A DNA stretch of 64,000 nt from a virus, in the IMG/VR virus record IMGVR_UViG_3300032300_000577, positions 1,420 to 65,419 of that record. One strand, written 5' to 3'. Below, piece after piece: positions 3,727-39,062 of this stretch. The notes below the pieces were generated by a model, which was not told the origin of the DNA, ran no database searches, and saw only the letters and a list, made by a program, of their open reading frames with translations. The position numbers were made by a program, and so were the translations under genes. How positions within the stretch are numbered: position 1 is the stretch's first letter; each line of letters begins with the position of its first letter.

Positions 3727-3737
3727 TAGTTATTCTC

Positions 3738-4214: not shown

Positions 4215-4242
4215 AGTTATGGTCTCTTATATTACTAATACA

Positions 4243-5556
4243 CTATTGTTGAAATACACAGGGTTCAAGATTGCATGGTTGTTGTAATGCTGCAATTTCC
4301 GAATAATGAAAATCTTTTAACATATCATTACAATTATCACTACTATAAAGATAAATTGGTCTAGTTGTTTTAATTAAGCCAGTTTCTACATCTTTTAATG
4401 TTGCATATAGTATTACTATCTGATTGGCCGTAATAGTGAAAATAGACATTACCTTTTGCTTAGTTGCTCCAGCAAAAAACCTGCCAGACTCTGGCTTTAT
4501 GTTTAGTGTTGGTATTGTTGGAATAAAGTGAAATTCGTATTCATATAATCTATTAATATTTAATTCAGAACATAACAGTGAAACTGGAGCATCTACATAT
4601 GAAGAATTTTTGACTACTATTGGTTGTTCAACAGTATTTGGGAAAGATGAGGTTTCAACTGTTCCCAACATACTAAGGTTTTCAAAATCAACCCTGAATA
4701 AATTATTTGTGTTTGTTACATTACAGTAATTACATACTACCTGGGCGATGTCTTTACTAATAACTCTGTTATTTTTGAGGAGTTTGATCTGGATTAGTGC
4801 TGATTGTACGCACTTCATAGACAAAATAGTTCTACAGTCTACTGTTAGAGCTTTAGCCTTAATATCAAATCCGTCAGAAACTTCATTGGTTATCGGAATA
4901 GAGCAACAAGGTGATAGAAACTCATAAGTTCCTTCGTTTTGTCTAATAGTATTGAGATATTGAATATCTAGTATATCATACTCTACTGAATAATCATTAT
5001 TTAAGTTTAAATTAGACATCCTATATTCTAATAACACCTTTTCTGAACAAGATATTGTTTTATCTGCCACGGCGTCAACAAGCACAGCTTCTGAAATATC
5101 TGAAGATTCACCAACAGCAGAACATGTGCTATAAATTATACTTCCTTTTGGATTTTTAATTCTAACCCAAACAATATTCTCGTGAGGGTTTTGATTTGTT
5201 GGATGTGCTAAAATTTGTATACTATAGTCTAGTCTATTTGTGGCCTTAATTAATCCTGCAAGACGTTCTGAAATAACATTACTAGCATATCTGTCTCCTG
5301 ATTCTGATCCTATTCCATCAGGCATTAATGCAGGAGGACTTCCTTCAGTAGCGTTATTTAAATTAGCGTCTAAAACTATAATACCATTTATTACAATGTT
5401 GAATCTAGCAGCATCACAGCGATGACCACCGAAACAGGGAGCATTTGCAACATCATTGTCTACATAAATTGCCTCTACTAGATAGTCTTTTAGAGTAAAA
5501 TTTTCAGGTATAATAATGGTGTTTAGTATATTGTTTTTAAATTTTATTTTTTCCAT
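4243..5556 (-). CDS. Cys-rich putative virion protein with two copies of the repeat domain
   Basis: 437-aa ORF; YEYEF...KPESGRFFA and DIAQVVCNYC motifs. Confidence 0.65.
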   Translation of the reverse strand: MEKIKFKNNILNTIIIPENFTLKDYLVEAIYVDNDVANAPCFGGHRCDAARFNIVINGIIVLDANLNNATEGSPPALMPDGIGSESGDRYASNVISERLAGLIKATNRLDYSIQILAHPTNQNPHENIVWVRIKNPKGSIIYSTCSAVGESSDISEAVLVDAVADKTISCSEKVLLEYRMSNLNLNNDYSVEYDILDIQYLNTIRQNEGTYEFLSPCCSIPITNEVSDGFDIKAKALTVDCRTILSMKCVQSALIQIKLLKNNRVISKDIAQVVCNYCNVTNTNNLFRVDFENLSMLGTVETSSFPNTVEQPIVVKNSSYVDAPVSLLCSELNINRLYEYEFHFIPTIPTLNIKPESGRFFAGATKQKVMSIFTITANQIVILYATLKDVETGLIKTTRPIYLYSSDNCNDMLKDFHYSEIAALQQPCNLEPCVFQQ

Positions 5557-5568
5557 AATCTAATACCT

Positions 5569-7743: not shown

Positions 7744-10050
7744 CTAGCTTAACGACCATATTGTGTCTTTATTGCTCAACCCCTGAGTTACATACACTCG
7801 CAACTCAGTAATGAAATTAGCATTATCTCTCAAGTCTGTTGATCTTGTCCAGTCTTGTTCAGCTCCGTTTATTAAATATATTCCGTTGTCTACTGCATTA
7901 GATTGATTCTTTACTAAAATTCTATCTCCAGATACTGTTTGAAGACCATCAATAATAGGTAAGTTTTTCAGAAGAGTATCTGCTGTTGTAGCTAATCTAA
8001 CCTGTCGAATTACTGTATCGTCCGCACATCTGAGAGAGGAAACCATAGGAGCAACAGTATCAAAATTAGATGGTAGTAACCATTCAGTCTTTGCATTTGT
8101 CTCTCCGTTTGTTACATATACTGGACAATAATCCTGAGATCCACTGCCAACATTATCTTTAAATGTGGTGCAGAAAGATCCTTGGGCTGGATTATAAGAA
8201 ACTAATATCCATGAAGCAAACTGACTTCCTGAATTTTGAACAACATAAACGTCTGATCCTCCCCATTTATTTGGGGCATAATTATTTTTGACCAAAACCA
8301 AATCTCCTACAGCCAAAGGAATACCGTCTATGCTTAATTGTTGTCTAAATCCTGTCATTATACCATTTCTATAGACCCCATCTAGAGTTGTGTAATTAAG
8401 TGGAGAACTTGTTGCGACCTTAACTATTAGATAGGTTCTCTGTGAACATCTATTTACCAATGTTGATGTTGGGGTTGGCGTAGAAGTCTTAGTAGGTGTC
8501 TGTGAGGGCGTTGGAGTTGTTGTTGGAGTTTGACTACTCGTTACAGTATTTGTGGGGGTAGCTGTATTTGTCGGAGTGGTTGTTGGAGTAGTTGTAACTG
8601 TTGGTGTTGTTGTTGCACTTTCTGTTGGGGTTTGACTATGTGTTGGCGTTTGTGTCTGAGTTTGTGTTGAGGTTGGAGTTGTAGTTGTGGTTGTTGTTGG
8701 AGTCGGGGTTGGAGTAACGTTTAGTATTCTCTTGCAGTCTTCGTCAAAATAATAGCAAACATTCCCTACTGCCTGATCAAATAAGAATGAGGCACCTCTG
8801 CAATCAACCAGATTTTGTTTATTTACACTCTTACAATCTACCTTAATTGCTCTAGTTCTTAATATCTCTCGTGAGTCATATTCATATATTTTAATTGTGA
8901 TATAATTATATTCACAGAAGTCTGTTCTTAAAGACATATATGCCGATGTGAAGAACTGATAGTCTCTTGCTATAAAATTATCTTCAGTAGTAAATATCTT
9001 AATGTTATCTGTTCCTAAAATTTCATAGAAATATTGAGCACCAACAACGAGATTAACAAAAACAATATCGAATTTATAATGGGGGGATATTTGTTTATTG
9101 TCATAGCAGCATTCTACATAATATGTAGGCTGATCAGTACCTATACAAACATTTAGATTGTCGTTCGAGGGAGTTACTGTTGGAGTGTTTGAAGGAGTTT
9201 CACTTATTGTAGGAGTATTTGATGGGGTTCGTGATGGAGTAACTGTGTTTGTTGGTGTGTTTGTTGGTGTTCTAGTATATGTGTGGGTTGGGGTTAGCGA
9301 TTGTGTCGGAGTATTTGTTGGTGTTTCAGTGGGTGTGGGTGTTTGTGTAGGAGTTGAAGAAAAAGATACTGTTGGACTTGGTGTTATAGACGAAGTAGGT
9401 GTTTGGCTATTACTTACTGTTGGTGTTGGTGTTTGACTATTGCTAACTGTTGGCGTTGGAGTCTGACTTTGACTTACTGTTGGCGTTGGGGTCTGACTAT
9501 TGCTTACAGTAGGAGTTGTTGTACTAGTTTGTGTTGGAGTCTCTGTTGGTGTCGAGCTTGCAGTCCTAGTAGGAGTACTGCTGGGAGTTCGTGTTTGGGT
9601 AGGTGTTGGAGTGGTTGTTGGAGCCGGAGTAGCAGTTGGGGTTTCAGTGCTAGTAGGTGTGATAGTCTGAGTAGAAGTATTAGTTGGCGTGACGGTTTGT
9701 GTTGGAGTTGCTGTAATTTCTGGAGGAATAGACAAACAGTCTATTGTTACAGTATCTTCTACAACAGTATCAGAATCCATATCTAATAAAGAAGACTTGA
9801 TAATAAAATATCTAGAGTTTTGACAAGCAGCTTTGACAACATAACTAGATGAAACACTTTGTCCTGCCACAAAAGTATAAGACGAAGGATCAAAAGACAC
9901 TGTTCCATCAGCAGAAATTTTCTGCATGGACAGAGTATAACTATTACCAGATACTAATCCGCTAAAAGATAGATATAAATTAACACCCAGAGAACAATCT
10001 AATGAGTCTTGTACTGTAATTATGGATTGTGAAAATTTTATATTTAGCAT
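7744..10050 (-). CDS. Mucin-like tail/appendage protein: two Cys-bracketed domains, two long Thr/Pro tracts, two IDG...GDRxLVKN tail-fibre-type domains
   Basis: Translation; the C-terminal RLATT...IDG...GDRILVKNQ...NGIY domain is shared with 44621..46792. Confidence 0.7.
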
Positions 10051-15604: not shown

Positions 15605-18600
15605 TTAAACTTGTTGTCCACCCATAACTCCAGGACTTCTAGCTGCTCCTTCTCCTGTTGTTGCTTGATCATATCTTGCTAATTGTTCACCAGCTTGTTT
15701 CATAACATTACTGGCCAATGCTGGTCCTAGATTGTTCATTACTTCTGCGCCATTAAGGGTAATATTAACTCCTAGCTGCTCACTAGTTAATCTAATTTCA
15801 GTTGGAATATTAACTTCTGCTAATTTGGTCAATAAAGTATCCAACTTACTAGCAAAAGCTTCAAACCCATTGTTGGATAATACACCAGCCCCTTGGTTTT
15901 GTGATGCTTGTCCTTGAGGAGTACGAGGTGCTGCTACTGGAGCACCCATTGGAGCAGATGCTTGTGGTGCTGCTGATGAGCCTGATGACCCCGAAGTTGC
16001 TGCTGTTCCAGGAGGTTGATTATTTTGAGCAGCGGCTTGTGTTGGGTTAGGATTCTCTAATAGTCTTGATCCTAATTTCTGCTTCATCTTTTCACGGGTC
16101 TCTTCATTAAAGCCACTTAAATATTGTTGTTGTTTTTGATATCTACTTTGCTCATATTGTTTTCTCTTCTGTTCTCTAATTTCATTATAAGACATTGGTC
16201 CTTGACGCTGTGGCTGACTTGGGGCAGTTTGACTACCAGCATTATTTGCTGTAGCTGCATTTGTGGCAGCTGCATTATTTTGCTCTGCAGCTTTTCTTTC
16301 AGCATCAAGATTTGCTTTAGACTGTTGTGATGCGTCAACTGCGTTAGCTGGTGGAGTGAAAACTGCTTGAGCTTGAGACGCTCCATAAACTGTTGGTGCT
16401 GGAGTAGCCGCTCCTGTTGTTTGTGGTGTTGTTCGTGTTGGTGCTGCTGGTTGTCCTGTTGCTGTCGCAGGTAGCGGAGCAGCGGCTTGTTGGCCTGTTC
16501 CTGTTGCTGGTACTGGAGCAGCAGCTTGTTGACCATTTGCTGCGCCTTGCGCTCCGGTAGCCTGTTGTGGTTTTGGAGGAGTTGCTGCAGGAGGTGGCTG
16601 GGTACCTTCGGCCATTTCTTGTAATTTTTGCTTGCGCTTATTAAATTCTTCTTCTGTTTCTCCACTTAGTTTATGGTCATCATAGGTCATTGTACTAGCT
16701 GAGGCTGATAAATTCTTTCTACCCTTTGCGTCTCCTGAGAAAACAGCATTTTCTTGTTGTGCTGCCAACATAGTTCTTTTAGCTTCTTCTTTTTCATCTG
16801 CTGTAGCCGTACCAGAACTTAGTATTTTTTGTGCTTCTGCTATTTTTCCTTCATTCTCAGCTTTCCTAGCTTTTACTTCTTCTTCTCCTAATGGAGCTTT
16901 ACCTTGAGGAGCCCCTTGTTTTCCAGCTTCTCCTGGTGGGGTTATGCCAATCTGTTTACCTTCAGCAACTGCTACTCTTACAGCTTCTGCTCCTGCTATC
17001 ATAGCAGCTAATACGGCTGCTCCCGTTTTTGTGGTTAGGGCTTCTGCCTCTTGAGCTATTAATTCTTTTGCAGCGTCGTTAGCTGCTTGAAGAGCTGCCT
17101 GTTGTCCATTTAAAGCGTCTTTTAGTGCTGCTACTTTAGGATCTTCGCCCGGCCCCTTCTTCATCATATCAATATAATCTTTCATGCTCTTATCACCAAT
17201 CATCATCTTTGAAGTATCTTGTCCTCTAGCAGCAAACATACTTTCATAAACACTACCCATCATCTTGGACTGAGCGGTTGGATCAACAGCCCCTAATAAT
17301 GGAGCTAATTCTTTTGCCATATCAATGGTGTCGCCACTTTCCTTAGCATATGCTTCTTGAGCCGATCTTTGGGCTTGCATATGACTACCGCCCTGTCTTC
17401 TAACCTGATTATAGGCAGTATTAGCAGAATAAGACTCTTGGAAACTAACACCCTTACCAGATAGTGTTTTATTCAAATTATTGAATGTATTTCCCATCTT
17501 CCTAAGATCTTTTGGAGTTGATGTTAGCATCTTTTCCATCAAGCCACCAGCAGCAGCAAGTTTAGCAGCTCGTTCTTGCATAACATCTTGTAACTCTTGC
17601 ATGATTCCACCAATGTTCTCTTTAATATCATTTGGTAGATTCATGATTTCATCACGAGCCTGTTGTGTAGCCTGAGCAAATTCAGCAGTAGTATTGGCAG
17701 CGGTCTGCATAGCATTTGACGCTGCTTTAATTTGATTTTCATCTCCACTTAATAATGTTGGTCTATTAGCTTCGGTAATTTGTTGTTGTGCTGTTGCTGC
17801 GGTTCCTGTGGCTTTATTTAACTGATTATATCTATTTAACATAGCTTGGGGACTAGCTGCAACTTGAGCACTAGTTCCTAATCTTGTTGCTCTAGCCTGA
17901 TTTCTAACGCCAGCATCAGCTTGATACGAAATCTTTTCTCCAGTAGCTCTCTTAAAAGCTAGTGTACTATTAGCAACTGTAGAATACGTATCAGCATCTC
18001 TATTACGAATTTCCTGACCCTTGCCAGCTGATTTTTGAGCAGCATCTCCCATCATACCAATTGCTTTTCCCGCACTTGCTGCTTGTGCTTGTAAAGCTGC
18101 AAATACCTCTTTAGAAGAAGCCATCTTATTTGCTAATTCTGGTACTGCTTTAATTAAATCATTAAAATTTACCTGAGTAATATCTCCTTTAAATCCTTCT
18201 AAAAAGGTGTTTATTTCTTTGGTCATACCAGAAGCAATCTCTGGACCAAAAGCTTGTTCAACAGTGCCTAACATAGCTTTCTTAACAGCTGCTCTTGCAG
18301 AGTTATCGTCTCCACCCTGTGCTTTTACTTCCTGCATAGCCATACCAAAGTTTTGTTCTAGTTTACGAGGAAGCATTGCCGATTGAACCATAGCTTCAGA
18401 GCTTGATCCTGCCATAGAAGAATTTTGACGAAGAGCACCTTCAACATCATTCATTGAATATGCTTCTGGATTAGATAGAATATCTGCTGATTGTGATATT
18501 TGTCCTTGTTGTACTGCTGCCATTGGATTATCAACAGCATCAATTCCCAGTTTACCATTTTCCATTACTTTGTCTGCTCTAGCAGCAGCAGCACTTAAAG

Positions 18601-21600
18601 CATTAGCCATCTTCTCAAACGAGACTGTAACTTTTTGCATTGCTCTTGATAGTTTTTCGTTTTCTTTTGCATTCTTGATGGCTTCTTCTTTGACTTTTAA
18701 TTCGGCCATTCCTCTTTGTATAGCAGCTTGATAGGCTTCTTCGTATTTTTTACTACCTTTAGAGGATGTTTCTTTTACTTTTTGAAATTCAACGTCAGTA
18801 TCTGCTATACTACTTGCCATAGCGTTCCATTGTTCAGGTTTCATTGAAGCTCGAACTTGATCTAACGTTTTACCACTACGTTCCATTTCTGCTGCTAAGA
18901 AATTAGTGTTGGCATCAGATGCGTCTTGAGCAGAATCTGCTCTTTCTTGTGCTGTTTTACGAGGTTTGCTGGAGAACATCCCAGTTTTTTGTAAGCCTGA
19001 TGTTTGTTCTTGAGCAGAGAGTTCTGTCATTGCCATGGTTGACTGAAGAGCTTCGTCTCTTGCCCTATTTCTGGTTTCGACAGAGACCTCCTTATTTCCC
19101 ATTACTCCAAGCTTTTGTCCAAACCTCTTGCTCTGCCTACCCATTTTATCTCGACGTTGCTCATCTTCAAATTGTTTGCCTATTTCTCCGCTGTTCATGT
19201 AGGCATATCCGGCTCCTGCGGCAGCTCCTAATCCGGCACCAACAGCACCTCCAACCACAGTTCCAACGCCGGGAACAACAGACCCTATCATACTACCCAT
19301 CATCAGCCCAGTGCTAGCACCAGCTACTATACTTCCTCCGTAGTTAGAAGCTTGTCTTCCTTCTAAGGTTTTTTCTCCTCCTAAGCCTTTTGCATATTGC
19401 TCAACAGCAGCACTACCAGCCATCGATACTGCCATTTGTCCCATATAACCACCCATACCACCCATACCGCCACCGCCCCTACTAGAAACAGGAGCGGCTG
19501 GAGCAGCTGCTCTGCCAACACGACCTCTTCGTCCGCGACGACCACCTGGACCACCACTACCGGAACCACCGCCATCCATAGGTCCGACAGGTACGATAGG
19601 TCCAGCACCTCCGACTGAGTTATTATCTAATTTATCCATAGTTCGGTTCATTTTTGCGCGAGCTAATATTCCCTCAGACCCACCCTTTCTAATGGCATCT
19701 GTGCCAGCTCCACCCTTACCAAACCCAGCATCTATTAACGCTTGTTTCTTTGATTTTCCTGCTGCTGTTTTTTCTCTTTTTTCAAAATCTGAATTTATTT
19801 CTGGTATTTGGTCTTTTGCACTATGGAACATGGCTTTACTTTTACTTCCTCTTCCAAATGCTCCATCATAATCTTCTTTAGTAATCCTCCCTGACTTTAG
19901 TGCTGTCTGAGCCTGTCCCTTTGTCATTCCTGCTAATTTTCCTTGTGTTGCAACTACTGTTCTTTGTAATCCTACAAAATTAGCCATTAATCCAGTAACA
20001 CCCCCTCCAATTTTTGCAAAGCCTGCTCCAAGTGAAGCAAACATAGTCGAAAAATTTGCTTTTCCAAAAGATGCTGCAAAATTACCAACAGATAATGAAG
20101 CTGAGCCTAGAGCTTTGCTAAAATTCCCCGATAATTGAGTACTCGCAGCAGCCAAAAGAGATCCTTGATTATTTTTATTTTTAGCAGAAAATTTTAAAGT
20201 GTCTAATTGTCCTTGTCCTTGTGCTGTTTTTATTCTTCCATAACTTTGCATTGCTGGAGAAAATCCTGCAGAATTAGCCTTTCTACTATCAAGTCTTTCT
20301 AAACTTTTTTGTTTAGCTACTATTCTAGCTTGAGCTTCTGCTGCATCTCTATCTTGAATATCTTGACCTACTTTTGTAGCAGCATTTGACTCTATAATTC
20401 TTTGGCCGGTTTTTTTCTCATCAAGTATAATATCTTTTCTTTCTTGAGTTGCATCTGCTCCAACAATACCAGATTTTCTTTGCCTACGATTTGATCTTTG
20501 TTGTGCAACGTGTTCTTCTACGGTAAGTCCACCAACATCTTTTGGCTCTAAGGGAGCGTTTATTCTCTTGCCCTTGCCGTTTCCATGAAATAATCCTGGA
20601 GCAGCTTTTCTTTCTACTGCCTCTCTACCTGTTGCAGACATAGGACTATGATGAGACGGCGTTGGTCCAGTCTCCACATATCCGGGCAGTCTTTTCCCTG
20701 TTTTTTGAAAATATGCTTCTCTTTTTTCTGCTAATGTTTTAGACACTGCTGTAGCAGTAATTGCTTGAGGAGCACTGGTTGGTGTAGCAGAAAGAGATCC
20801 TGTTCTGGCAGTGGTCGGATCGCTAGACATGATATTAGTAACTTCTTTGATCCTAGCATTACTTTTTGCTTTTATTTTATTATTTTGAGCTAAGCCTGCT
20901 GCGGAACCTCTATTGTCAAAGAATTCTCTTTCTCTCTGTGATACTTCTTTGGGTATAACTCTTCCAGTTTTGACTTGTTCTTTTTTCTGTGTTTCTCTTT
21001 GAATAATAGCATTAGATGCTGTAAATCTTTCTTGTTTTTTTCTAATCTCAGCTAATTTTGTATGACTTTTAGTTTTCTTAGCTTTATCTTCTAAATATGC
21101 TCCATAGTCCACGTATCCTCTTTGTGTAGCTCCTTGATTTCTTTGTTCTACATAGTTTTGAGCTTCAGATAAAACAGTAGATTTTACACCGGGGGTTGTT
21201 ATTCCGAAAGTCGTATTATTTTTTTTAGCTTCATTAGCATAATATTTCATACCACTAATATAACCTTTAGGTTTTTGTGGTTTTCCTTTATTTTCTACTC
21301 TCTCTTTTGCAGTAGCTACTCTGCCTAGTCTGTCTCTTTCATCAAGATCTTTTTGGTTTTGTACTACTCTTTGACTACCGGCAATAACATCTTCTAGGTC
21401 ACTATTAGATATAGGAACACCCATTTTAGTTCTTACTGCTTGATTAGCCTGTTTCTTGGCTTTGCTTGTTGCTTTTGATATTTCTTTTTTGTCTGTCATA
21501 TTCCTAATACCAAGCTTATCCTTGCTCTTTTCAAATGCTTCGTTGTGAGTTGTTGTTATGATAGATGCTGCTTCGTGACTAGCTTTCAAAGAACCGACAG

Positions 21601-24600
21601 GAGCTTTGGATCCATTTTTCATTTGTAACTGCCTAACAACCTCAGGTTTAACTCCCTGATATAAATTAGTGGCTAAATTTTTACTTGCTCCTTCTACTGG
21701 TTGGGACTTATTGTATGGAACAAATTTTTCTCCAGAACTTGTGGTATGTGATTTCTTATCCCATGTTCTGTTTTCATAGTGTGGATTAATACCGGTTTTA
21801 TTTGGATCCCCAGTTGCTGCACGATTAACATAGTTAGCTGTTGCGACCTCTTTGGTTTTATCATATCTTGCCATACCTGAGAATGGTACATTGCGGGATC
21901 TTTCTTCTCCAAACCTTAAAGCTGCCTCGGCTACTACTGAAGAAGCAAGAGGTCCTCTCTTATTAGCTTGATTATTTTTATCTACAATAGTACGAGAATT
22001 TGCTCCTAAACTATCCATAGAACTTCCAGCTGCATTCAACCCCAATATTAATTTACCAAAAGATTGTTGTAATCTTGGAGAAACTTTACCTAATATATTT
22101 TCTATTCCGAGTATTGTTTTTTCCAGCCTTCCTAAGCCAAGATCACTTGTTGCTTTCTGTAGCACAACGTCTCCACCCCTAGCCAACTTTTGTACACTTC
22201 CACCACTCGCAAATTTTTGAACCATGCCTCCGGTGTGATACTTAGGAAGCTTATCTAAAGTATTACTAGCAACCTTACCACCCCTATTTAATTTTTTAAG
22301 AGTGTGCTCTCCAATTTGACCGGTAGCATGTTTATTAAGAACAAATTCACCCTTTTGGGCCATGATCGGAATTTCATCGGGAGCAGAAAGAGGAGAACTA
22401 GTTCCTCTGGAAAATCTCTGAATTAATCCACCAATAGCTGCTTTTTGTAATCTTTTACTTGTAACAGTACGTATAGGCTTGGGAGAAATGATACCACTAT
22501 CAACCATACTTTCCATTGTTGGCTTACTATCTATACCATAACCATAAATAGAAGGATATCTTTTTCCTAGTCTCTCCAATGTTCTGTGGTGAGACATACC
22601 AATAGAGCCTTTGAGCTTGGTCTTTTCGGATCTTAGTTTATCAACAATCTCTGCAATATCTGGATGTTCTTTTTTATATGCTGCAGATAGTCTCGATGGG
22701 TACTGGCTTAATTGTTTGTCAATAGCGGCTATTTTAGCTAATGCTCGTTTTTCAGCTTTTTCGTATAGCCTAGGGGTTATCTTTTCTCTATTTCTTATAC
22801 CAGAGGCTGCCCCTTTGACTATTTCTGTTGCGTTTGGATGTAATCCAGTAAAATTTCCTTGAGATATTTCTTTTCTTGTATTAGTACCAGATTCTGGTGT
22901 TCTAGGAACTGTAACAGTTTGTAATCCTGCCTTATCATAAGCCGATAAATTCTTGTCTTCATCCCCAACATATGCTTTACTTCCTTTCCCTGGTCTTACA
23001 AAATGTCTTCGGCCATTATTTTTTTGAACCTCATAAATTTCTGGTAGAGTAAAGCCTTTTCCAGCAGCACTAACATAAGCATCTGGTACCGACGCTTCTG
23101 CAATCTTCATTCTTAGTTTTTGACTATATCCAGCCGTTCGTAATGAGTGAGAATCTTTAGGATCATATCCCTCGTTTGATCCTACAACTATTATTTTTTT
23201 TTGTTTTGCATTATCTATTAATCCTTCAATGTGTCCTTTTTTAGTCATGGGAGCATATGCTCCTCTAAACATATCAACATCTTCTGTGCTTACAAGAGGT
23301 AGTTCATCTGCTCTTTTTCTTCTTTTCTTAAATCCTGGCATTAATCCTAATGTAATTAATTTTTTCTTTTCTATACCCATAGAAAGCATAGCTTCTAATT
23401 CACCACTATCTTGTGCAGCTATCGTGTGGGTTCTTCCGTACTGTTTTTCCCCTGTATTTGTTCTATGTTTTAGTTGACGTTTAAGAATTTTTAATTCTTC
23501 TTTTGTACTACTAGATAAAGCCACTACTCTATCCGAATGCTTGGCTATTTCAAGTTTTTCTAAACTCATGCTAGCTGTAGTATCTCTAACCTCAGATAGG
23601 CCAGAAAAATCTTCTGGTGTTTCTATAAAAGATCTTATGGTTTTTCTAAGTTTAGCATTATCAGATATTGCTGTTCTGGCATTTCCCTCAGCAAAAGAAC
23701 TTTTACCAGCACCGGGCGATCCAGCAATTGTAACTAATTTTTTAAGAGATCCTTCTGTTCTTTTGTCGATGGCTGTTTTACTTAATAATTTTTTATATCC
23801 ATCAACATCATAAGTATCTTTATCTGCATTATGAAAACCAAGTTCCCTCATGGCCTTTCTGGCTCTTTCACTATTTCTTAATTGATCACTATCCAATATT
23901 CCCATTTTTCTAACAAGCGGACCCTTAGTTCCACCAGCAAAAAACTGGTATGGTTGGGGAGATATTTTTCCTCCTCCAGATCTTCTCATTCCAGCTACAA
24001 GTATTCGTCTTTCAAAAGGACTTGGTGTTGGAGTATATTGTGGATCTGGACTCAGTGACTTAAGTGGTTCAGCTATCCTTCTTTGATTTTCGGTGGTTGT
24101 TGCTGGCTGCGTTTTTAAAGATTCTGTTAATTGTGCAACATTAGTTTTCATACCAAGTTTATTTGATTGTTCTTTTTGTATTTTTTCTATGTATTGTTGA
24201 GTTTCTGTCTGTGACAATCTATTAGTTTTAACAAAATTTTCAATTTCAGAATATTTCCATTTTGGAAGACCGCTTTTATCTAGCAAATCATAAAATCCAG
24301 TGCCTAATTTATTAGATGGACCGGTAGATAGTGGGCTTTGGCCAACATTTTCTGAAGGTACTAGTTTACTTGGTGATCTTGATACTTTTCCAGCATTAGC
24401 TAATCTTTGTACTTGTCCACCTAGTGCTTTTCTTGATCTCCTAAGTTTTTTATCTCTTAAAAACCTACCCATCTGAGCAGTTTTATTTTCTTCGGTATTA
24501 ACGGTAACATCTGTTGGGATACCTTCTTTTACTCCAAACAATCCTGCTACTCCTGATCCTTTGGGTAGATCCATAGGAGTATTAATTTTACCGGTTGGAT

Positions 24601-27600
24601 AAAAACTTCTACTATCTGCTGCCGCAACAGCTGACTCAAACATTTGTCCTAATCCACCACCTTGAAAAGTTTTCTTAATAATTGCATTAAGAGCTTTCCT
24701 GTCTGAAACTGCTGGTGTTCCTGCTCTTTCTGCTAATACTGCTGCCATCTGAGCTACAGTTTCTCTATATCCTTTTCTTGCTATAGCTTCTAATCTTTTA
24801 CTTAAAAATCCTGATAATACTCCCTTCTGAACGGTAATATCTTTTGATTTAAAAGCTCCTTTTGTTTTAGTTTTTGGTAAATCAGGAGTAGCATCTTGGG
24901 AAATACCAGATGGTCCTCTTAATCCCAATACTCCGAATTCTCTTGTTGATGCTAATCTTTTAGACTTAGCTTTTTTAGCTTTTTTAGAAGCTGTAACTTT
25001 ACCATACTCCGCCATTAATTTCTGAAAGCTTGGCCCACTTGGATTTTTAGCTCCTAATACTTTTCGAGCATCTTCTCCTCCTATAAGAGCATCAATAGAT
25101 CTCATATCGGGAAATTTAGTTAATAGTGTTTTTAATAGAGATGCTCTTCCTGGAAAAGCTAATGGTTTATCAGTTCCACCAGATAGTCTTTGTATTAGAC
25201 CTCCAATAGCATGATAACGATGGCGTCCTCCTCTTTGGGTAACAACTCTTAAGTCTCCTTTTTCTGCCCGGTCTTGCATTTCTTCGGTCCATCTTTTCCT
25301 AACTTCAGATGTTGTTCTTCTTGTCTTTGTTCCTTTTTTAGCAGCTTCAAGGGCGGCCTTTTCTCTTCGTTCTTTGCCTTTTTTTGGATCTGTATAAACA
25401 ACTTCTTTAATCTGCGCAAAAGCTCTTTTAAGAGCAGGATTATCTGCAGCATCAATTATAGATTTACCAAGTGGATATAATTGTTTGTCTGAGACGATTG
25501 GATAGTTTAGGTTATTAGCAGATGCAATTAATGCATTTTTAAGAGTCTGTAATACTTTTGGGTCAGATAATGCTGCATATGCTGCGCTTTTTCTCCCTCC
25601 TCTAAATGTACCTGCGCCAGTTCTAACTTCCTTACCGTTTCTAGATATTTGTAATTGTTGTGAAAATAACTGTTCAGGATCTGTGCCTGCTATAGCAGCA
25701 ATCAATTCTTCTTTTGAGATATTTGCTTTTCCTATTGTTCCATCAGCATTTCTATGTTTTAGCTCTTGGTTCCATTTTGCAGCCTTTCCTCCTAGTGTTA
25801 TACCGATATTTGTTAATCCTCTTCCTTTTCTGCTACCAGGACCAAATAAATTTTTGATAATTGGACCAGGATCAAGATGCATGAATACTCCACCACTAGC
25901 ATTAGTTTTACCAACTTTAATTGGCTTAACTTCTCCAGCCTCAGCCATTCTTTGTCTTTGAATTTGTCCACCATTAGCAAGAGCCATCTCAGGAAAAGCT
26001 TTTCTTACAGATTGTCTTTTAACAACAACCGAGCCTACTGGAAGAGTAGTTTTAAAGTTATCTCCTCGTCCACTACCAGGAACCATGAATACTCCGCCTC
26101 CTTCGGCCAACTTTAAATTATCTGGTTTCTTTCCGGTGCGATTTAAACTGAGGATTGGTCCGGCACCACCAGCTCTTTTAACTGCTTGTTTGCCGCTAAA
26201 AACCATCTCTCCAGCCTCTAGCGCTACAGGAACTCCTCCCTCGGAAAATCTTTGAATCTTTCCTCCATTAGCAAAACCTCTTGGAGCGCCACTCATTCGG
26301 TCTCCTGCTCCGGCTCCTCTTCCTCCACCGCCCCCCCTTATACCACCCATAAAACCACCAGCAAATCTGAATGCTCCTATCGTTCCTTTTACTGCCAACA
26401 ATGCTGTAATTGCTGGTAGTGCATGTTTAGCAGAATCGGCAACTGAGATAAAAGCACTAGCTAAATTAAGAGCCAACTTGACCATGGTTTGAAATTCGTT
26501 GCTACTACCAATTTTACGAACTAAAGAAATAAATTCTTCTTGTACTTTAGTCATTTGAACAGCAAGAGCTTGTTGAGCTTTAGCAGCATCACTACTTAAA
26601 GACCCCTGTCCTCTTTGGGCGACACCTAAAGCTTTTTCTGCTGTTGCAAATTGCTGTAGCAAAGGAATAACTTTACCTACCTGTCGGAACCCACCAAGTT
26701 CTTCAATGATGGAGGAGAATCTAATGTCTCTGGTATCTAATCCTGCTAATCCCTGACTTAATCTTTTAACAGCTTCATATGGTCCAACAAACTTGCCTTC
26801 GAGGTCTGTTAATTGTATTCCAAATTGTTTAAGAATATCAATAGTTTCTCTTCTTTGAAGTCTGGTAAAAATTGTTCTTAAACCAGTAGCAATTGTTTCT
26901 GCACTTTCACGAGTAGTAGCTCGAATACTAGTAAAGACTGCAATAAATTCATTCAATGCTTGTGTGCCTTCACTAACACCCTTACTAGATGCAGCAAACA
27001 CACCACCGGTACGCTGAATAGCAGTAATAATATCTCCGGCTTCAACAGCAAACTTAGCAGCAACAGCATTAATAGAACCAAGAGCACCATCTAATTGGTC
27101 TGTAGAGATAGAGAATTGTCTCATAAGAGCAATACTACCTTCAACAGTACTATTTAAATCATTAAACGATGGAGCTAATGTACTCTTTGCTAAAGCTCTT
27201 AAAGCCTGTTCTGTTTCTTTTGCTGACAAACCAGCCTGAGCTAATGTACTAGAAACATCTATTAACGAACTAGATGAAACACCCAAACTTGTTGATAATA
27301 ACGTAATTTCTCTTTCTAATCCAGCTAACCCAGGAAGAGATGTTCCTGTAACTTGAGATAGCTGAACCATTTGCTTATTAAACTTCATAAACTCATCTGA
27401 TGCCGCACTAATAGCTCTGGTGAATTTATATATGATTCCGGTTACTAGTGTAAACGCAGCAAATCTACGAATAGCTAGTGCTGACTGTCTTCCAAAATCT
27501 GCCATAGAGTTGCCAGATTGTTGTATTGTTTGTGCTGTTCTAATTTGTTGTTTTTGTAATTGTTGTGATTGTTGGGTTACTGCTGACATAGTTCTGGGCA

Positions 27601-27862
27601 AAGAACTCATATTAGCAGAACCAACAGAAGCCCCAAATCTTTTCATAGCATCAGCAGCACTAGCTGCTGAAACTACAGTATTCTTAAGATTAGCATTTAG
27701 GTTTTGTAATGATTTTGATGACGACGCAAGATTCGCAGTATTAATGTTAATATTAATGTTGGGATTAATACTACTTAATTGTTTGCGAATATTGGAAATA
27801 ACGGGCTTAAGATTAGCCGGACCCGATATGTTTAATTGTGCAGTAAGGTTGAATGATGCCAT
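15605..27862 (-). CDS. Giant tail tape measure protein (TP901-family core) with internal cargo domains
   Basis: 4085 aa; N-terminal TMP core (LAQAGLS...INAVAAKFAV...RESAETIATGLRTIFTRL); Ala/Gln/Lys-rich helical C-terminal half; position after tail tube and chaperones. Confidence 0.9.
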   Translation of the reverse strand: MASFNLTAQLNISGPANLKPVISNIRKQLSSINPNINININTANLASSSKSLQNLNANLKNTVVSAASAADAMKRFGASVGSANMSSLPRTMSAVTQQSQQLQKQQIRTAQTIQQSGNSMADFGRQSALAIRRFAAFTLVTGIIYKFTRAISAASDEFMKFNKQMVQLSQVTGTSLPGLAGLEREITLLSTSLGVSSSSLIDVSSTLAQAGLSAKETEQALRALAKSTLAPSFNDLNSTVEGSIALMRQFSISTDQLDGALGSINAVAAKFAVEAGDIITAIQRTGGVFAASSKGVSEGTQALNEFIAVFTSIRATTRESAETIATGLRTIFTRLQRRETIDILKQFGIQLTDLEGKFVGPYEAVKRLSQGLAGLDTRDIRFSSIIEELGGFRQVGKVIPLLQQFATAEKALGVAQRGQGSLSSDAAKAQQALAVQMTKVQEEFISLVRKIGSSNEFQTMVKLALNLASAFISVADSAKHALPAITALLAVKGTIGAFRFAGGFMGGIRGGGGGRGAGAGDRMSGAPRGFANGGKIQRFSEGGVPVALEAGEMVFSGKQAVKRAGGAGPILSLNRTGKKPDNLKLAEGGGVFMVPGSGRGDNFKTTLPVGSVVVKRQSVRKAFPEMALANGGQIQRQRMAEAGEVKPIKVGKTNASGGVFMHLDPGPIIKNLFGPGSRKGRGLTNIGITLGGKAAKWNQELKHRNADGTIGKANISKEELIAAIAGTDPEQLFSQQLQISRNGKEVRTGAGTFRGGRKSAAYAALSDPKVLQTLKNALIASANNLNYPIVSDKQLYPLGKSIIDAADNPALKRAFAQIKEVVYTDPKKGKERREKAALEAAKKGTKTRRTTSEVRKRWTEEMQDRAEKGDLRVVTQRGGRHRYHAIGGLIQRLSGGTDKPLAFPGRASLLKTLLTKFPDMRSIDALIGGEDARKVLGAKNPSGPSFQKLMAEYGKVTASKKAKKAKSKRLASTREFGVLGLRGPSGISQDATPDLPKTKTKGAFKSKDITVQKGVLSGFLSKRLEAIARKGYRETVAQMAAVLAERAGTPAVSDRKALNAIIKKTFQGGGLGQMFESAVAAADSRSFYPTGKINTPMDLPKGSGVAGLFGVKEGIPTDVTVNTEENKTAQMGRFLRDKKLRRSRKALGGQVQRLANAGKVSRSPSKLVPSENVGQSPLSTGPSNKLGTGFYDLLDKSGLPKWKYSEIENFVKTNRLSQTETQQYIEKIQKEQSNKLGMKTNVAQLTESLKTQPATTTENQRRIAEPLKSLSPDPQYTPTPSPFERRILVAGMRRSGGGKISPQPYQFFAGGTKGPLVRKMGILDSDQLRNSERARKAMRELGFHNADKDTYDVDGYKKLLSKTAIDKRTEGSLKKLVTIAGSPGAGKSSFAEGNARTAISDNAKLRKTIRSFIETPEDFSGLSEVRDTTASMSLEKLEIAKHSDRVVALSSSTKEELKILKRQLKHRTNTGEKQYGRTHTIAAQDSGELEAMLSMGIEKKKLITLGLMPGFKKRRKRADELPLVSTEDVDMFRGAYAPMTKKGHIEGLIDNAKQKKIIVVGSNEGYDPKDSHSLRTAGYSQKLRMKIAEASVPDAYVSAAGKGFTLPEIYEVQKNNGRRHFVRPGKGSKAYVGDEDKNLSAYDKAGLQTVTVPRTPESGTNTRKEISQGNFTGLHPNATEIVKGAASGIRNREKITPRLYEKAEKRALAKIAAIDKQLSQYPSRLSAAYKKEHPDIAEIVDKLRSEKTKLKGSIGMSHHRTLERLGKRYPSIYGYGIDSKPTMESMVDSGIISPKPIRTVTSKRLQKAAIGGLIQRFSRGTSSPLSAPDEIPIMAQKGEFVLNKHATGQIGEHTLKKLNRGGKVASNTLDKLPKYHTGGMVQKFASGGSVQKLARGGDVVLQKATSDLGLGRLEKTILGIENILGKVSPRLQQSFGKLILGLNAAGSSMDSLGANSRTIVDKNNQANKRGPLASSVVAEAALRFGEERSRNVPFSGMARYDKTKEVATANYVNRAATGDPNKTGINPHYENRTWDKKSHTTSSGEKFVPYNKSQPVEGASKNLATNLYQGVKPEVVRQLQMKNGSKAPVGSLKASHEAASIITTTHNEAFEKSKDKLGIRNMTDKKEISKATSKAKKQANQAVRTKMGVPISNSDLEDVIAGSQRVVQNQKDLDERDRLGRVATAKERVENKGKPQKPKGYISGMKYYANEAKKNNTTFGITTPGVKSTVLSEAQNYVEQRNQGATQRGYVDYGAYLEDKAKKTKSHTKLAEIRKKQERFTASNAIIQRETQKKEQVKTGRVIPKEVSQREREFFDNRGSAAGLAQNNKIKAKSNARIKEVTNIMSSDPTTARTGSLSATPTSAPQAITATAVSKTLAEKREAYFQKTGKRLPGYVETGPTPSHHSPMSATGREAVERKAAPGLFHGNGKGKRINAPLEPKDVGGLTVEEHVAQQRSNRRQRKSGIVGADATQERKDIILDEKKTGQRIIESNAATKVGQDIQDRDAAEAQARIVAKQKSLERLDSRKANSAGFSPAMQSYGRIKTAQGQGQLDTLKFSAKNKNNQGSLLAAASTQLSGNFSKALGSASLSVGNFAASFGKANFSTMFASLGAGFAKIGGGVTGLMANFVGLQRTVVATQGKLAGMTKGQAQTALKSGRITKEDYDGAFGRGSKSKAMFHSAKDQIPEINSDFEKREKTAAGKSKKQALIDAGFGKGGAGTDAIRKGGSEGILARAKMNRTMDKLDNNSVGGAGPIVPVGPMDGGGSGSGGPGGRRGRRGRVGRAAAPAAPVSSRGGGGMGGMGGYMGQMAVSMAGSAAVEQYAKGLGGEKTLEGRQASNYGGSIVAGASTGLMMGSMIGSVVPGVGTVVGGAVGAGLGAAAGAGYAYMNSGEIGKQFEDEQRRDKMGRQSKRFGQKLGVMGNKEVSVETRNRARDEALQSTMAMTELSAQEQTSGLQKTGMFSSKPRKTAQERADSAQDASDANTNFLAAEMERSGKTLDQVRASMKPEQWNAMASSIADTDVEFQKVKETSSKGSKKYEEAYQAAIQRGMAELKVKEEAIKNAKENEKLSRAMQKVTVSFEKMANALSAAAARADKVMENGKLGIDAVDNPMAAVQQGQISQSADILSNPEAYSMNDVEGALRQNSSMAGSSSEAMVQSAMLPRKLEQNFGMAMQEVKAQGGDDNSARAAVKKAMLGTVEQAFGPEIASGMTKEINTFLEGFKGDITQVNFNDLIKAVPELANKMASSKEVFAALQAQAASAGKAIGMMGDAAQKSAGKGQEIRNRDADTYSTVANSTLAFKRATGEKISYQADAGVRNQARATRLGTSAQVAASPQAMLNRYNQLNKATGTAATAQQQITEANRPTLLSGDENQIKAASNAMQTAANTTAEFAQATQQARDEIMNLPNDIKENIGGIMQELQDVMQERAAKLAAAGGLMEKMLTSTPKDLRKMGNTFNNLNKTLSGKGVSFQESYSANTAYNQVRRQGGSHMQAQRSAQEAYAKESGDTIDMAKELAPLLGAVDPTAQSKMMGSVYESMFAARGQDTSKMMIGDKSMKDYIDMMKKGPGEDPKVAALKDALNGQQAALQAANDAAKELIAQEAEALTTKTGAAVLAAMIAGAEAVRVAVAEGKQIGITPPGEAGKQGAPQGKAPLGEEEVKARKAENEGKIAEAQKILSSGTATADEKEEAKRTMLAAQQENAVFSGDAKGRKNLSASASTMTYDDHKLSGETEEEFNKRKQKLQEMAEGTQPPPAATPPKPQQATGAQGAANGQQAAAPVPATGTGQQAAAPLPATATGQPAAPTRTTPQTTGAATPAPTVYGASQAQAVFTPPANAVDASQQSKANLDAERKAAEQNNAAATNAATANNAGSQTAPSQPQRQGPMSYNEIREQKRKQYEQSRYQKQQQYLSGFNEETREKMKQKLGSRLLENPNPTQAAAQNNQPPGTAATSGSSGSSAAPQASAPMGAPVAAPRTPQGQASQNQGAGVLSNNGFEAFASKLDTLLTKLAEVNIPTEIRLTSEQLGVNITLNGAEVMNNLGPALASNVMKQAGEQLARYDQATTGEGAARSPGVMGGQQV

Positions 27863-27952: not shown

Positions 27953-28828
27953 TCACTCTGGTGCAGGTTCTGGTTCCTTGGTAGGTTCCTCAACTTTTGG
28001 AGAAGGTTCTGGTTTAACTTCATTTTTTACTTCTTCTTCTTGTACTGGATTGCCGTCGTCGTCCAAAAATGGTTTAAATTCAACAATATAATTTCCATCT
28101 AGATCTACCTTATTGCCGAACTTATCAACAAACTCTCCACTATCATTAATGAATCTTCCGTTGTCGTCTATCAATCTACCATCTTCATCAACCAGTTTAC
28201 CTTGTTTATTAATTAATCTTAGCTTTTCGTCAACGAACTTATACTTCTTCAAAAACTTATTTTCTGGTAGATTATTTTCATAATCACTATCCAATCCGTA
28301 TAACATATTAGCCAAATTTTGAGCACCTTGAATGGCAACACTTTCTGTGGCCCTATTTAGATACTCTTCCATATTCTTGAAAACAGGTTGTTTCGTATCA
28401 TTATACACCACGCAGGCCGATACTAAATAATTAAACTTAGCATTGTCTGCTTGTCCTTCTGCACTATGATTATCAAGAGATGATCGAGATCCGATTAGCT
28501 CTCTAATTTCGTCTCTGGTCTCCTTCATCTTCATAGCAACGTCTTTGGCCTCTTTAAGAGAGATACCACCCTGAGCAAGTCTTCTTTCTGACTCTAGTAA
28601 TTCTTGCTGCAATTCGGCTAACCTTGCTTGCTTTTGATTATCCCACAATCCTTGTTCTGTAAGAACATCTTCCATCTTTGCTCTAACAACAGACTTACTC
28701 TTGATAGCATCTGTAAATGCTTGGTTGTATACTTTTTGTCCTTCTCTTTGATCTTGTAGGCTTGGACTTCTAACTGAAACGTCTCTTTCCTTACCTTCGA
28801 CCATAACCTTAAAACTTCTAGAATTCAT
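27953..28828 (-). CDS. Putative tail assembly chaperone with DxxG repeats
   Basis: Position between tail tube and TMP; coiled-coil; 7-aa periodic (D/N)xxG repeats. Confidence 0.5.
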   Translation of the reverse strand: MNSRSFKVMVEGKERDVSVRSPSLQDQREGQKVYNQAFTDAIKSKSVVRAKMEDVLTEQGLWDNQKQARLAELQQELLESERRLAQGGISLKEAKDVAMKMKETRDEIRELIGSRSSLDNHSAEGQADNAKFNYLVSACVVYNDTKQPVFKNMEEYLNRATESVAIQGAQNLANMLYGLDSDYENNLPENKFLKKYKFVDEKLRLINKQGKLVDEDGRLIDDNGRFINDSGEFVDKFGNKVDLDGNYIVEFKPFLDDDGNPVQEEEVKNEVKPEPSPKVEEPTKEPEPAPE

Positions 28829-28831
28829 AAA

Positions 28832-29146
28832 TTATTCTCCTTTGTCCGGTCTGTTGTTTTTGAAATAAAACTGATAGTGATACTTATAACCTTTTTCTTT
28901 ATTATATAGATATTCATCCAATTCGTCTAGTGCTGATCTTAATTGATTGTTACCATTATTAAGAATATTGTTTCTTGTTTCTTGCCAAAGCTCAAAATAT
29001 TCATCAGCATTTTTACTATCTTCTTGCCATAAATATCCAAAAGATTCTTCAAACTTGGCTAGTGCTCCAATCATTGTTGTCTTAAATCTTCTAGAGATAC
29101 TATCCATTAAATCGTCTAGATCTTCATCTGGCTTATTTTTTTTCAT
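28832..29146 (-). CDS. Hypothetical protein (tail assembly region)
   Basis: 104-aa ORF, tightly packed in the operon. Confidence 0.65.
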   Translation of the reverse strand: MKKNKPDEDLDDLMDSISRRFKTTMIGALAKFEESFGYLWQEDSKNADEYFELWQETRNNILNNGNNQLRSALDELDEYLYNKEKGYKYHYQFYFKNNRPDKGE

Positions 29147-38216: not shown

Positions 38217-39062
38217 TTATTTCTTTGTGAAGTCATATGATGGTGGATTAAAAGATGCTGTATACCGAGCTACTCCTTTTGTGATTCGGATAGAATCCAT
38301 ATAACCAGTAAAAAATCGACTTGTGTTATTTTCTATACTTCCGATTCTACTAATGGACTGTGTATATGTTCTATTATCAGTTGCAGTAGCCACTTGCGTA
38401 CCATTAATAAATGAACGTAATGTGGAACCACTGCGAGTCCAAGCTACGTGAGACCACACGTTCTTCGATACTCTTGCAGATGGGGGTGAATACATTGCAA
38501 CGCCAGCGCCGTTATTGTCGCTATAATATGCCAATTTCCCTGCGTTTGATGCGAGGTCGTTGGCTATGAAAAAAAAGGTGTTTGCTGAGGCGAAAATAAA
38601 CATATCTGCTGTATATTCCGCTGGCGATGCAATTGATTCCCTACTGTACGCTGTCGGATAAACCCATGCCTCAACAGTAAAGTTTCCGCTGCCAAAGTTC
38701 AAAACATTGCCAATGTCGTCATATAATTCGATACGGCTACTCACTCCATCAAAAAACGCTGACTTAGTTCCAAATTTCACTTGTTGCGTCGATGTGGTAA
38801 TGCCGCCCGCTGCAGTTATTGTCAATGGATTTGAGAGTGTCGGTCCGGCATGACTGAAGTTGTTTTCGAAATTCAACAACAGAGACACGCTAGAAATGTG
38901 TAAATCGTCCCACGACTCAATCGGCGTCCGCAGCCAATAATTCGTCGCAGTGCAAATGTATTGATACTGCGAATCGTAGGCGATCTGTCCTACCGTCCCA
39001 TTATCTGTCGCGGAAGCTGGTACCGGACCACCTTGATATAATTGTATTCTTGAAAGAGGCAT
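38217..39062 (-). CDS. LamG/concanavalin A-like lectin domain protein
   Basis: FGSGNFTVEAWVYP...WSHVAWTRSGSTLRSFING...GYMDSIRITKGVARY. Confidence 0.8.
   Translation of the reverse strand: MPLSRIQLYQGGPVPASATDNGTVGQIAYDSQYQYICTATNYWLRTPIESWDDLHISSVSLLLNFENNFSHAGPTLSNPLTITAAGGITTSTQQVKFGTKSAFFDGVSSRIELYDDIGNVLNFGSGNFTVEAWVYPTAYSRESIASPAEYTADMFIFASANTFFFIANDLASNAGKLAYYSDNNGAGVAMYSPPSARVSKNVWSHVAWTRSGSTLRSFINGTQVATATDNRTYTQSISRIGSIENNTSRFFTGYMDSIRITKGVARYTASFNPPSYDFTKK

Follow-up and report, generated by a model that had tools for sequence, protein, structure and literature searches.

A 4,085-residue viral tape measure protein that probably carries a fenced and changeable set of cargo domains

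The window analyzed here is a 64,000-nucleotide stretch of viral DNA (IMG/VR record IMGVR_UViG_3300032300_000577, positions 1,420 to 65,419), and its element of interest is one open reading frame (ORF) on the minus strand, 15605..27862, taken from the ORF list and translation, which encodes a tail tape measure protein of 4,085 residues plus stop. On balance we favor the reading that the N-terminal third of this protein (residues ~530-1900) carries a changeable set of cargo proteins fenced from one another by a short repeated peptide. Sequence comparison showed that, at this peptide, cassettes have been added, lost, exchanged and rearranged among related phages, which supports reading the region as a cassette array and the peptide as a recombination joint. 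One of the cassettes is predicted to be a two-domain enzyme. All features of the gene described below lie on the minus strand.

The assignment as a tape measure protein follows from two family searches. Pfam family PF10145 (PhageMin_Tail, phage minor tail protein) matched residues 189-378 with 85.8 bits against a cut-off of 33.2 (E = 4.7e-24) and was the sole family found on the whole protein at E ≤ 0.1, and PHROG tape measure families 4211 and 167 also matched; by family membership, therefore, the ORF is a real tail tape measure protein. INPHARED and IMG/VR gave no relatives through the array itself: tblastn of residues 490-1950 against 50,697 INPHARED phage records found no match, and the same region searched alone in IMG/VR gave two pattern matches of which none was confirmed. 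Phmmer of the whole protein and of residues 1794-1909 against PDB sequences gave no matches. A collection of 5.8 billion proteins yielded 11 relatives of 3,430-6,736 residues, and a search of IMG/VR with the conserved N-terminus yielded 109, on contigs of up to 238 kb. Eighty of the latter were retrieved; the ORF exceeded the 10 kb retrieved in 59 and was complete in 21 (1,962-3,704 residues). The family comparisons below use 91 relatives, or 92 proteins with this one. The conserved N-terminal region that contains PF10145 (residues 1-520, 26303..27862) is present at ≥50% coverage in 90 of the 91 and is 56-93% identical in 13 of 14 tabulated relatives, the fourteenth, P0007, having no such region.

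The fence peptide was defined by the core GGx[IV]Q[RK], which occurs in seven exact copies, at residues 533, 631, 887, 1148, 1811, 1878 and 1887 (span 533-1899), with a degenerate eighth copy, GGGKISP, at residue 1297. Composition-preserving shuffling of the protein (2,000 shuffles) averaged 0.032 copies and never exceeded 2; analytically, 0.034 copies are expected. Among the 198 six-frame ORFs of at least 60 residues in the window, no other contained a match to the motif profile at ≥5 bits. With seven copies against 0.03 expected, and a restriction to the tape measure ORF, the motif is not a product of chance.

The core hexamers, located by regular expression, lie at 26249-26266, 25955-25972, 25187-25204 and 24404-24421 for copies 1-4, and at 23957-23974, 22415-22432, 22214-22231 and 22187-22204 for junction 5 and copies 6-8. 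In their wider contexts, copy 1 reads GAPRGFANGGKIQRFSEGGVP (residues 525-545, 26228..26290, profile score 25.9 bits, coordinates checked by translation), and the weaker copy 2 reads ANGGQIQR (residues 629-636, 25955..25978), an exact regular-expression match that scores 3.8 bits with the profile. Copy 3, GRHRYHAIGGLIQRLSGGTDKP (residues 879-900, 25163..25228), and copy 4, RRSRKALGGQVQRLANAGKV (residues 1141-1160, 24383..24442), score 25.4 and 21.5 bits. The degenerate junction 5, RRSGGGKISPQPYQFFAGGT (residues 1293-1312, 23927..23986), was found by regular expression, and the homologous site is a full motif in P0002, P0005, P0006 and P0007 (e.g., RRLAVGGEVQRL in P0002). Copy 6 is KRLQKAAIGGLIQRFSRGTSSP (residues 1803-1824, 22391..22456, 30.3 bits), and copies 7 and 8 stand in tandem as KLPKYHTGGMVQKFASGGSVQKLARGGDV (residues 1871-1899, 22166..22252, 28.4 and 21.3 bits).

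The array is bracketed by two small modules of ~45 residues, named here for their GEFV signature, each flanked on both sides by GG motifs in the form FAxGG...DTVPALLTPGEFVINKKAA..IG...L..LN...GG.VQKFAxGG. Module A, GGVPVALEAGEMV... then GGGVFMVPGSGRGDNFKT, occupies residues 539-605 (26048..26248) and scores 55.9 bits with the GEFV-module profile; module B, IPIMAQKGEFVLNKHATGQIGEHTLKKLNRGG..., occupies residues 1828-1892 (22187..22381), scores 85.5 bits and is present in 60 of the 91 relatives. The segments between motifs have no mutual similarity (best pairwise BLASTP E = 1.5). An earlier note on this DNA had placed repeated motifs inside a single tape measure ORF, with small modules at both ends of the block and dissimilar segments between, and all three descriptions stand. 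A homo-trimer prediction for residues 1803-1900 (three copies, 47-row alignment) scored 0.00 against a mark of 0.42, with the fold of the single chain itself uncertain, and was used for no reading. A longer form of the module, GG[IV][IV]YA..G.L[IV].[FY].P.GTDTVPAMLTPGEFVVNR.ATQ.NLPLL..IN, is repeated up to five or six times in more distant relatives, where it is located in the C-terminal half (residues ~2,500-6,500) of P0010, P0011, P0012, L036, L050, L056, L057, L066 and L069. There it fences further large segments, so that a second array can follow the hydrophobic stretch.

The motif is a property of the family. At ≥10 bits, the profile found 200 copies in 74 of the 92 proteins, 101 of them at residues 500-1000. 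Aligned on the GG, which every copy has (100%), these give the consensus [KR]-[FYK]-[AN]-x-G-G-x-[IV]-Q-[KR]-F-A-x-G-G-x-V, in which I/V is kept by 96% of copies, F/L by 93%, K/R by 90% and Q by 79%. One relative, P0013, begins at a motif (MAANGGQIQRF...), which may reflect a truncated gene call. The cargo appears to keep to the same kind of protein. A HMMER search with residues 631-1830 against 1.84 billion representatives gave 68 matches at E ≤ 1e-3, and 52 of the 67 other than the query itself exceed 1,500 residues (up to 6,532), mostly matched through cassette S5; the cargo is thus essentially confined to giant tape measure proteins.

Dividing the 92 proteins wherever a motif scored ≥8 bits yielded 132 cassettes of at least 60 residues, which fall into 55 families, 22 of them singletons. 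Their order varies, S3 preceding S5 in this protein, L003 and L051 and following it in L028. Comparing relatives for conserved flanks around variable cassettes, a check that the earlier note had proposed, gave the expected pattern. P0002 is 93% identical to this protein in the N-terminus, 98% in S2 and 92% in S3, then 46% in S4 and 34% in S5; P0004 is 92% identical in the N-terminus and 86% in S3, is 31% identical in S5, and has no S2; P0007 is 34% identical in S5 and 93%, 98% and 100% identical in three segments after the array. Segments at 34% identity are enclosed by flanks that are 92-100% identical.

The ends of similarity likewise point to the motif. Within residues 480-1950, compared with the 91 others, 153 of 299 BLASTP segment ends fell within 15 residues of a motif, as against 15% expected from uniform placement. 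At the DNA level, 16 of 49 distinct internal ends of tracts at least 85% identical between relatives lay inside a motif, where the motif's share of the gene predicts 0.5, and 28 of the 49 lay within 8 residues of GGx[IVLM], random placement averaging 3.2 and never exceeding 10 (2,000 trials). Several DNA-tract ends missed by the motif profile coincide with weak GG variants. The proposal of interchangeable cassettes with the motif as their joint accordingly found support in the reordering, in the jumps of identity at the motifs and in these ends.

Cassette S5 (residues 1313-1802, 22457..23926; in 31 of the 91 relatives) is predicted by AlphaFold2 (AF2) to be a two-domain enzyme followed by a helical tail. 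The model, built from an 18-sequence alignment, has a mean predicted local distance difference test (pLDDT) score of 81.9 and a predicted template modeling (pTM) score of 0.75. Its ends adjoining the motifs are disordered, the last 32 residues before motif copy 6 having pLDDT < 50; in this model as in that of S2-S4, the motifs are placed in low-confidence linkers between folded cores. Conservation was assessed in 18 sequences whose identity to the window copy lies at 27-49%.

Domain 1 (residues 1316-1522, 23297..23917) is P-loop kinase-like by its fold match and by a Walker A sequence, GSPGAGKS, whose lysine (K85 of the alignment) is invariant in 18 of 18 homologues. In fold it comes closest to zeta toxin 6epg_B (Z 8.7, root-mean-square deviation (rmsd) 3.9 Å over 156 residues); Pfam Zeta_toxin matched S5 at E = 0.016, below its cut-off. 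Domain 2 (residues 1526-1698, model residues 224-396, 22769..23287) resembles HIGH-motif nucleotidyltransferases of the NMNAT/NadD/PPAT type in VIA-align, Foldseek and PDB-profile searches. VIA-align gave Z 13.2 with the NMNAT 1f9a (2.5 Å, 144 residues), 13.1 with 4yp6, 12.5 with NadM, 11.8 with NadD and 11.7-12.6 with PPAT, and Foldseek gave E = 2.1e-4. A profile of S5 matched the PDB sequences 3gmi (4.6e-6), NMNAT 9x6f (2.2e-3) and NadR 6gye (0.02). G232, P236, S356, T358 and R361 are invariant in the 18 sequences and T238, G241 and H242 nearly so, positions that we take to be the (H/T)xGH and SxTxxR motifs of nucleotidyltransferases; the first of these carries one extra residue in the window copy (TKKGH). 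As domain 2 is seen by profile search of PDB sequences and not by Pfam, we regard it as a predicted fold-level relative of NMNAT, NadD and PPAT rather than a member of a named family. The modeled fold and the invariant motifs together support the prediction that S5 is a conserved P-loop kinase joined to an NMNAT/PPAT-type nucleotidyltransferase, in keeping with the earlier supposition that at least one segment is enzymatic.

A NadR-type identity for S5 (NMNAT followed by the ribosylnicotinamide kinase RNK) was retained only as an improbable function, the order here being kinase first and the best kinase match being the zeta toxin; no RNK chain occurred in the best 50 fold matches listed for the kinase domain. 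The nearest phage-borne parallel considered is the NARP3 pathway, in which a phage NadR-like kinase is reported to act with an NMN adenylyltransferase (Sci Adv 2026, PMC13464706). Like S5, that system pairs a P-loop kinase with an NMNAT-type adenylyltransferase; unlike it, S5 has the reversed domain order, a kinase nearest to zeta toxin rather than to ribosylnicotinamide kinase, and a PPAT match nearly equal to that of NMNAT. It is conceivable, though unlikely, that the S5 kinase-adenylyltransferase rebuilds NAD+ or another adenylylated cofactor and so blunts a host defence.

The three cassettes ahead of S5 are less readily classified. S2 (residues 637-878, 25229..25954) is present in 3 of the 91 relatives, S3 (residues 901-1140, 24443..25162) in 16 and S4 (residues 1161-1292, 23987..24382) in 8. 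AF2 placed cores at residues ~690-820 in S2 (pLDDT 70-92) and ~970-1080 in S3 (pLDDT 75-88), and a small helical core at ~1185-1230 in S4 (pLDDT 85-89), for which the best structural match goes no further than a three-helix bundle (Z 5.5, rmsd 3.1 Å, 57 residues). Motif copy 3 sits within a stretch of pLDDT < 50 (model residues 241-275). S2 had no Pfam match and no usable ESM Atlas match, and Pfam searches of the six separate segments at E ≤ 5 gave sub-threshold P-loop matches in S5 and otherwise noise.

Cassettes of the relatives give further indications of enzyme-type cargo. Pfam was run on 40 representatives, one for each family with a locus copy (the 15 families known from P-proteins alone were left out), and found ADPrib_exo_Tox in three (the best in L024, E 7.6e-10, 38.9 bits against a cut-off of 23.4), SNase in one (E = 1.6e-6) and ART-PolyVal in one (E = 1.1e-4). 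No Pfam family was found in seven other long cassettes scanned beside that of L024. S3-type cassettes (S3 here, L003, L028, L041, L043, L051 and others) share a conserved pattern ...FE...(I)DF..GLG...LFGV....TD(A/V)(T/K), which takes the form DFP...PTD(A/V)KRT in P0009 and P0010. The pattern recalls what we take to be the PD-(D/E)xK nuclease signature; no fold match was obtained for it. A HELTHQL-type motif was also seen by eye in cassette family 11 (P0009 residues ~874-1282, P0011 residues ~1560-2000, L080:17183-18838), and this cassette could be a zincin-like peptidase, relevant to processing.

Taken together, these features suggest a tape measure protein in which the region directly after the PF10145 domain would act as a carrier for separately folding cargo proteins. 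Each of them would be fenced by [KR]-x-[AN]-x-G-G-x-[IV]-Q-[KR]-[FL]-A-x-G-G, and a GEFV mini-module, of a kind also found in lambda gpH, would open and close the array. Ejection of a tape measure protein precedes that of the DNA, and its C-terminus, which lies at the tail tip, goes first. N-terminal cargo would therefore enter the host last, beside the genome, so that finished enzymes would be present before any phage gene is expressed. It is therefore likely that the host receives ready-made proteins through the tail.

The function of the junction peptide is the less certain part of this proposal. By analogy with T5 pb2, and perhaps lambda gpH, it may be a cut site, used in tail maturation or after ejection; we regard this as a serious possibility while stopping short of calling it probable. 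During T5 tail maturation, pb2 is reported to be split after R1127 into pb2* and pb2C (Linares et al. 2023, PMC10038345); no other tape measure cut is known to have been mapped. The cut frees an enzymatic C-terminal piece that is described as retained in the tail and for which expulsion into the host has been proposed. R1127 is followed in the T5 record by AEGGMMY. The relaxed pattern [AN]xGG(x)[IVLMFY] has a single match in the 1,219 residues of pb2, starting at residue 1128, although pb2 contains five GG pairs; the same pattern has 10 sites within residues 531-1894 here. The two systems are alike in that a tape measure protein carries an enzymatic piece, and AEGGMMY, the T5 sequence after the cut, resembles the fence. 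They differ in that T5 has one site and one 92-residue C-terminal cargo acting on the cell wall, whereas the present protein has eight junctions, and its cargo is N-terminal and resembles intracellular enzymes.

Lambda gpH provides the module. Residues 730-785 of gpH (NC_001416) read FHFATGG...RGEFVFTKEATSRIG...GYATGGYVG, and the GEFV-module profile matches residues 753-785 at 19.8 bits, in agreement with the earlier note. A ~14-kDa C-terminal piece is reported (PMC12617516) to be removed from a glycine-rich region, which lies just upstream of the module, giving gpH* and gpHC. The computed mass of a piece starting at residues 715-733 is 14.3-12.7 kDa, so the cut should fall close to FHFATGG (residues 731-737), the link between motif and cut being positional only. 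PDB entry 9e7m lists the C-terminal region of gpH as a chain of residues 818-849 only, so that the module is unmodelled there; entry 8iyk gives the full-length chain sequence. Lambda gpH shares with the present protein the GEFV mini-module with xATGG flanks and a comparable tip-bound C-terminal element, but it lacks cargo and its one module lies close to the C-terminus, where the array here has two modules around cassettes.

A third system shows an enzyme on the ruler itself. In Thermus phage P23-45, gp96 is a tape measure protein of 5,002 residues whose N-terminal part is fused to a working virion RNA polymerase, and the enzyme enters together with the genome and is active before phage genes are expressed (Nat Commun 2024, PMC10770324). 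The likeness is that of a giant tape measure protein bearing an intracellular enzyme towards its N-terminus; the difference is that gp96 carries one fixed enzyme, and that article describes no fence motif and reports no cassette exchange. Pfam found no RNA polymerase family in the present tape measure protein at E ≤ 0.1. Between them, T5, lambda and P23-45 supply the cut, the module and the enzyme on the ruler, one element of the arrangement apiece.

The polyvalent proteins of phages and conjugative elements offer another comparison (Iyer, Burroughs, Anand, de Souza, Aravind 2017, PMC5512222). As described there, these are giant polypeptides of unrelated effector-type domains in variable combinations, including ADP-ribosyltransferases (ARTs) and zeta-toxin-like kinases; they are thought to enter the cell with DNA, and their processing is ascribed to embedded metallopeptidase (MPTase) domains. 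Several unrelated effector-type domains are likewise present here, the 55 cassette families are reordered, ART-PolyVal occurs in a relative and a zeta-toxin fold in S5. In contrast, the carrier here is the tail ruler, while that text contains no occurrence of tape measure and no repeated short fence peptide, and Pfam found no embedded MPTase in the present protein at E ≤ 0.1 or in its segments at E ≤ 5. A literature search for motif-fenced swappable cassette arrays in tape measure proteins found no description of one, subscription journals and supplements being outside its reach.

A number of points weigh against a deliverable, cleavable cargo array. The motif profile finds nothing in T5 pb2, whose site shares only R|A-x-G-G and hydrophobic residues with the fence, and the two lambda gpH sites score only −3.7 and 2.6 bits. 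P23-45 gp96 is reported to be full-size in virions (PMC10770324), and no peptidase was found in the present protein or in 10 neighboring ORFs (Pfam and PHROGs; segments at E ≤ 5). Folded domains of 250-500 residues should not, by our own reasoning, fit the lumen of a tail tube, so that storage would require the cargo to be unfolded or placed elsewhere. For the exchange of cassettes, the BLASTP ends and DNA ends stem from related sequences and are not independent events, and this gene has no DNA match of ≥85% to any retrieved locus; the DNA joints are therefore shown among relatives and not in this gene. For S5, no cytidylyltransferase-like Pfam family matched at E ≤ 5, and NMNAT, NadD and PPAT are tied within ~1.5 Z units, so that its substrate cannot be told. 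The S2-S4 model (residues 631-1300, 670 residues) has a mean pLDDT of 61 and a pTM of 0.34, with low values around the motifs, and had no known-fold match (best Foldseek E = 0.48, best VIA-align Z 5.5); being only partly confident, it makes this null fold search proof neither of a new fold nor of the absence of a known one. The earlier expectation of globular cargo, and the structure prediction proposed as its check, held for S5 with its confident two-domain fold; for S2, S3 and S4 they yielded partly confident cores and no fold match.

The best-surviving alternative, possible but less so than a cut site, is that the junction peptide serves structure or assembly and might bind the tail assembly chaperone or the tube wall, or keep the three or six chains in register, with the cargo staying tethered at the entry pore. 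A giant protein tethered at the entry pore is what PMC10770324 proposes for P23-45 gp96. This alternative would explain why conservation spans ~15 residues (−3 to +12) and includes the second GG, which is longer than many protease sites, and why the motif is physically tied to a GEFV module that most relatives keep and that is common with lambda gpH; it also fits the finding of no peptidase nearby. It is less easily squared with the position of the one mapped tape measure cut, in T5, directly ahead of the single AxGG-hydrophobic match in pb2, with the lambda gpH cut falling in the same neighborhood, or with the location of the motifs in linkers, outside the folded cores.

It is very improbable that the motif, with no role in the protein, is just a scar of recombination or a microhomology by which cassettes move, even though DNA homology tracts of the relatives end at it far above chance. 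The DNA of the seven copies in this gene is 67% identical over the core, and the same codon is used at shared residues in 0.57 of 91 comparisons among copies, where the codon usage of the gene predicts 0.32-0.72 depending on the residue. Codon sharing at the expected level means that selection acts on the peptide and not on the DNA, the conserved codons giving only short microhomology; judged from these codons, then, it is at the peptide level that the motif is maintained. Moreover, the peptide is kept in the 200 copies although the N-terminal domains are only 53-76% identical to this one, and a scar would drift. The related idea that the motif forms a long DNA repeat driving recombination within the gene was dropped, codon sharing among the seven copies being no higher than expected.

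There is equally little to be said for the segments being length filler, neither cargo nor enzymes, that sets an unusually long tail: tape measure length does determine tail length (established; see the text of PMC10770324), S2, S3 and S4 have no recognizable fold or family, and the parts after the array are also long and variable, but S5 folds in the model into two enzyme-type domains with Walker A and SxTxxR invariant and TxGH nearly so in 18 diverged homologues, relatives hold ADP-ribosyltransferase and nuclease domains above Pfam cut-off in the same position, and filler would not need a conserved fence.

A bolder extension of the favored reading, and a long shot, is that A-x-G-G-hydrophobic is a general self- or host-processed cut site, in T5 and lambda too, multiplied here into a polyprotein from which the tail injects a phage-specific set of free enzymes (kinase-adenylyltransferases, ADP-ribosyltransferases and nucleases) beside the incoming genome, with S5 restoring NAD+ or a related cofactor at time zero against an NAD+-depleting defence.

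If a fenced, changeable cargo set is indeed what the N-terminal third holds, the tail ruler of a large uncultured phage group would double as a loading rack, refitted by recombination at one short peptide. It would be a third route for proteins entering with the genome, beside ejection proteins packed in the capsid and fusions to a single enzyme, as in P23-45 gp96, and the cassettes would form a catalogue of dozens of early-acting phage proteins, naturally cut into domains. Where and how lambda gpH is cleaved (PMC12617516) would also become a testable question, for the shared A-x-G-G motif beside the T5 cut indicates which residues matter in two laboratory phages. Cargo in other tape measure proteins might further be located by means of the fence peptide and the GEFV module.

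The remainder of the tape measure protein has features of its own. A Gly/Met/Ala-rich hydrophobic segment, read off the translation at residues 2790-2900 (19163..19495), is possibly a membrane-inserting part. It is 100% identical in P0007, and the surrounding residues 2600-2900 are only 15-49% alignable in most other relatives. T5 pb2 and lambda gpH are reported to have a comparable hydrophobic or glycine-rich stretch ahead of the cleavage region. The C-terminal element (residues 3990-4085, ...VNIPTEIRLTSEQLGVNITLNGAEVM..., 15608..15895) was compared by eye with the complete relatives, and many of the 21 have a comparable end of the form ...V.V.(I/L)NG(A/G)..., with a likeness that is weak in BLASTP (best E = 0.002, L010). 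Because of this comparable element, the complete relatives look like whole tape measure proteins and not split genes, and split-gene forms were set aside, none of the 21 looking broken at a motif by these comparisons. Directly before the C-terminal element lie low-complexity Gln/Ala/Pro/Thr-rich tracts (e.g., ...PPAATPPKPQQATGAQGAANGQQAAAP..., residues ~3740-3990, window 15893-16645). The G+C content is 0.43 in two windows spanning 16001-20000 and 0.35-0.37 in neighboring windows.

Twenty neighboring ORFs were scanned, of which 14 had no PHROG match at all and 17 had no functionally categorized PHROG match at E ≤ 0.001; no Pfam match reached the cut-off of its own family, and no peptidase, sheath, tube or chaperone could be named among the 20 from PHROGs and Pfam. 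With 14 of 20 neighbors outside any PHROG family, the phage is evidently far from cultured ones. Two ORFs directly upstream of the tape measure gene, 27953-28828 (minus, 291 residues) and 28832-29146 (minus, 104 residues), occupy the usual place of tail assembly chaperones and had no family match above threshold in PHROGs or Pfam. The neighbors with categorized PHROG matches, at 38217-39062, 39284-41560, 44621-46792 and 7744-10050 (all minus), resemble baseplate-wedge, tail-fibre and Ig-like decoration proteins.

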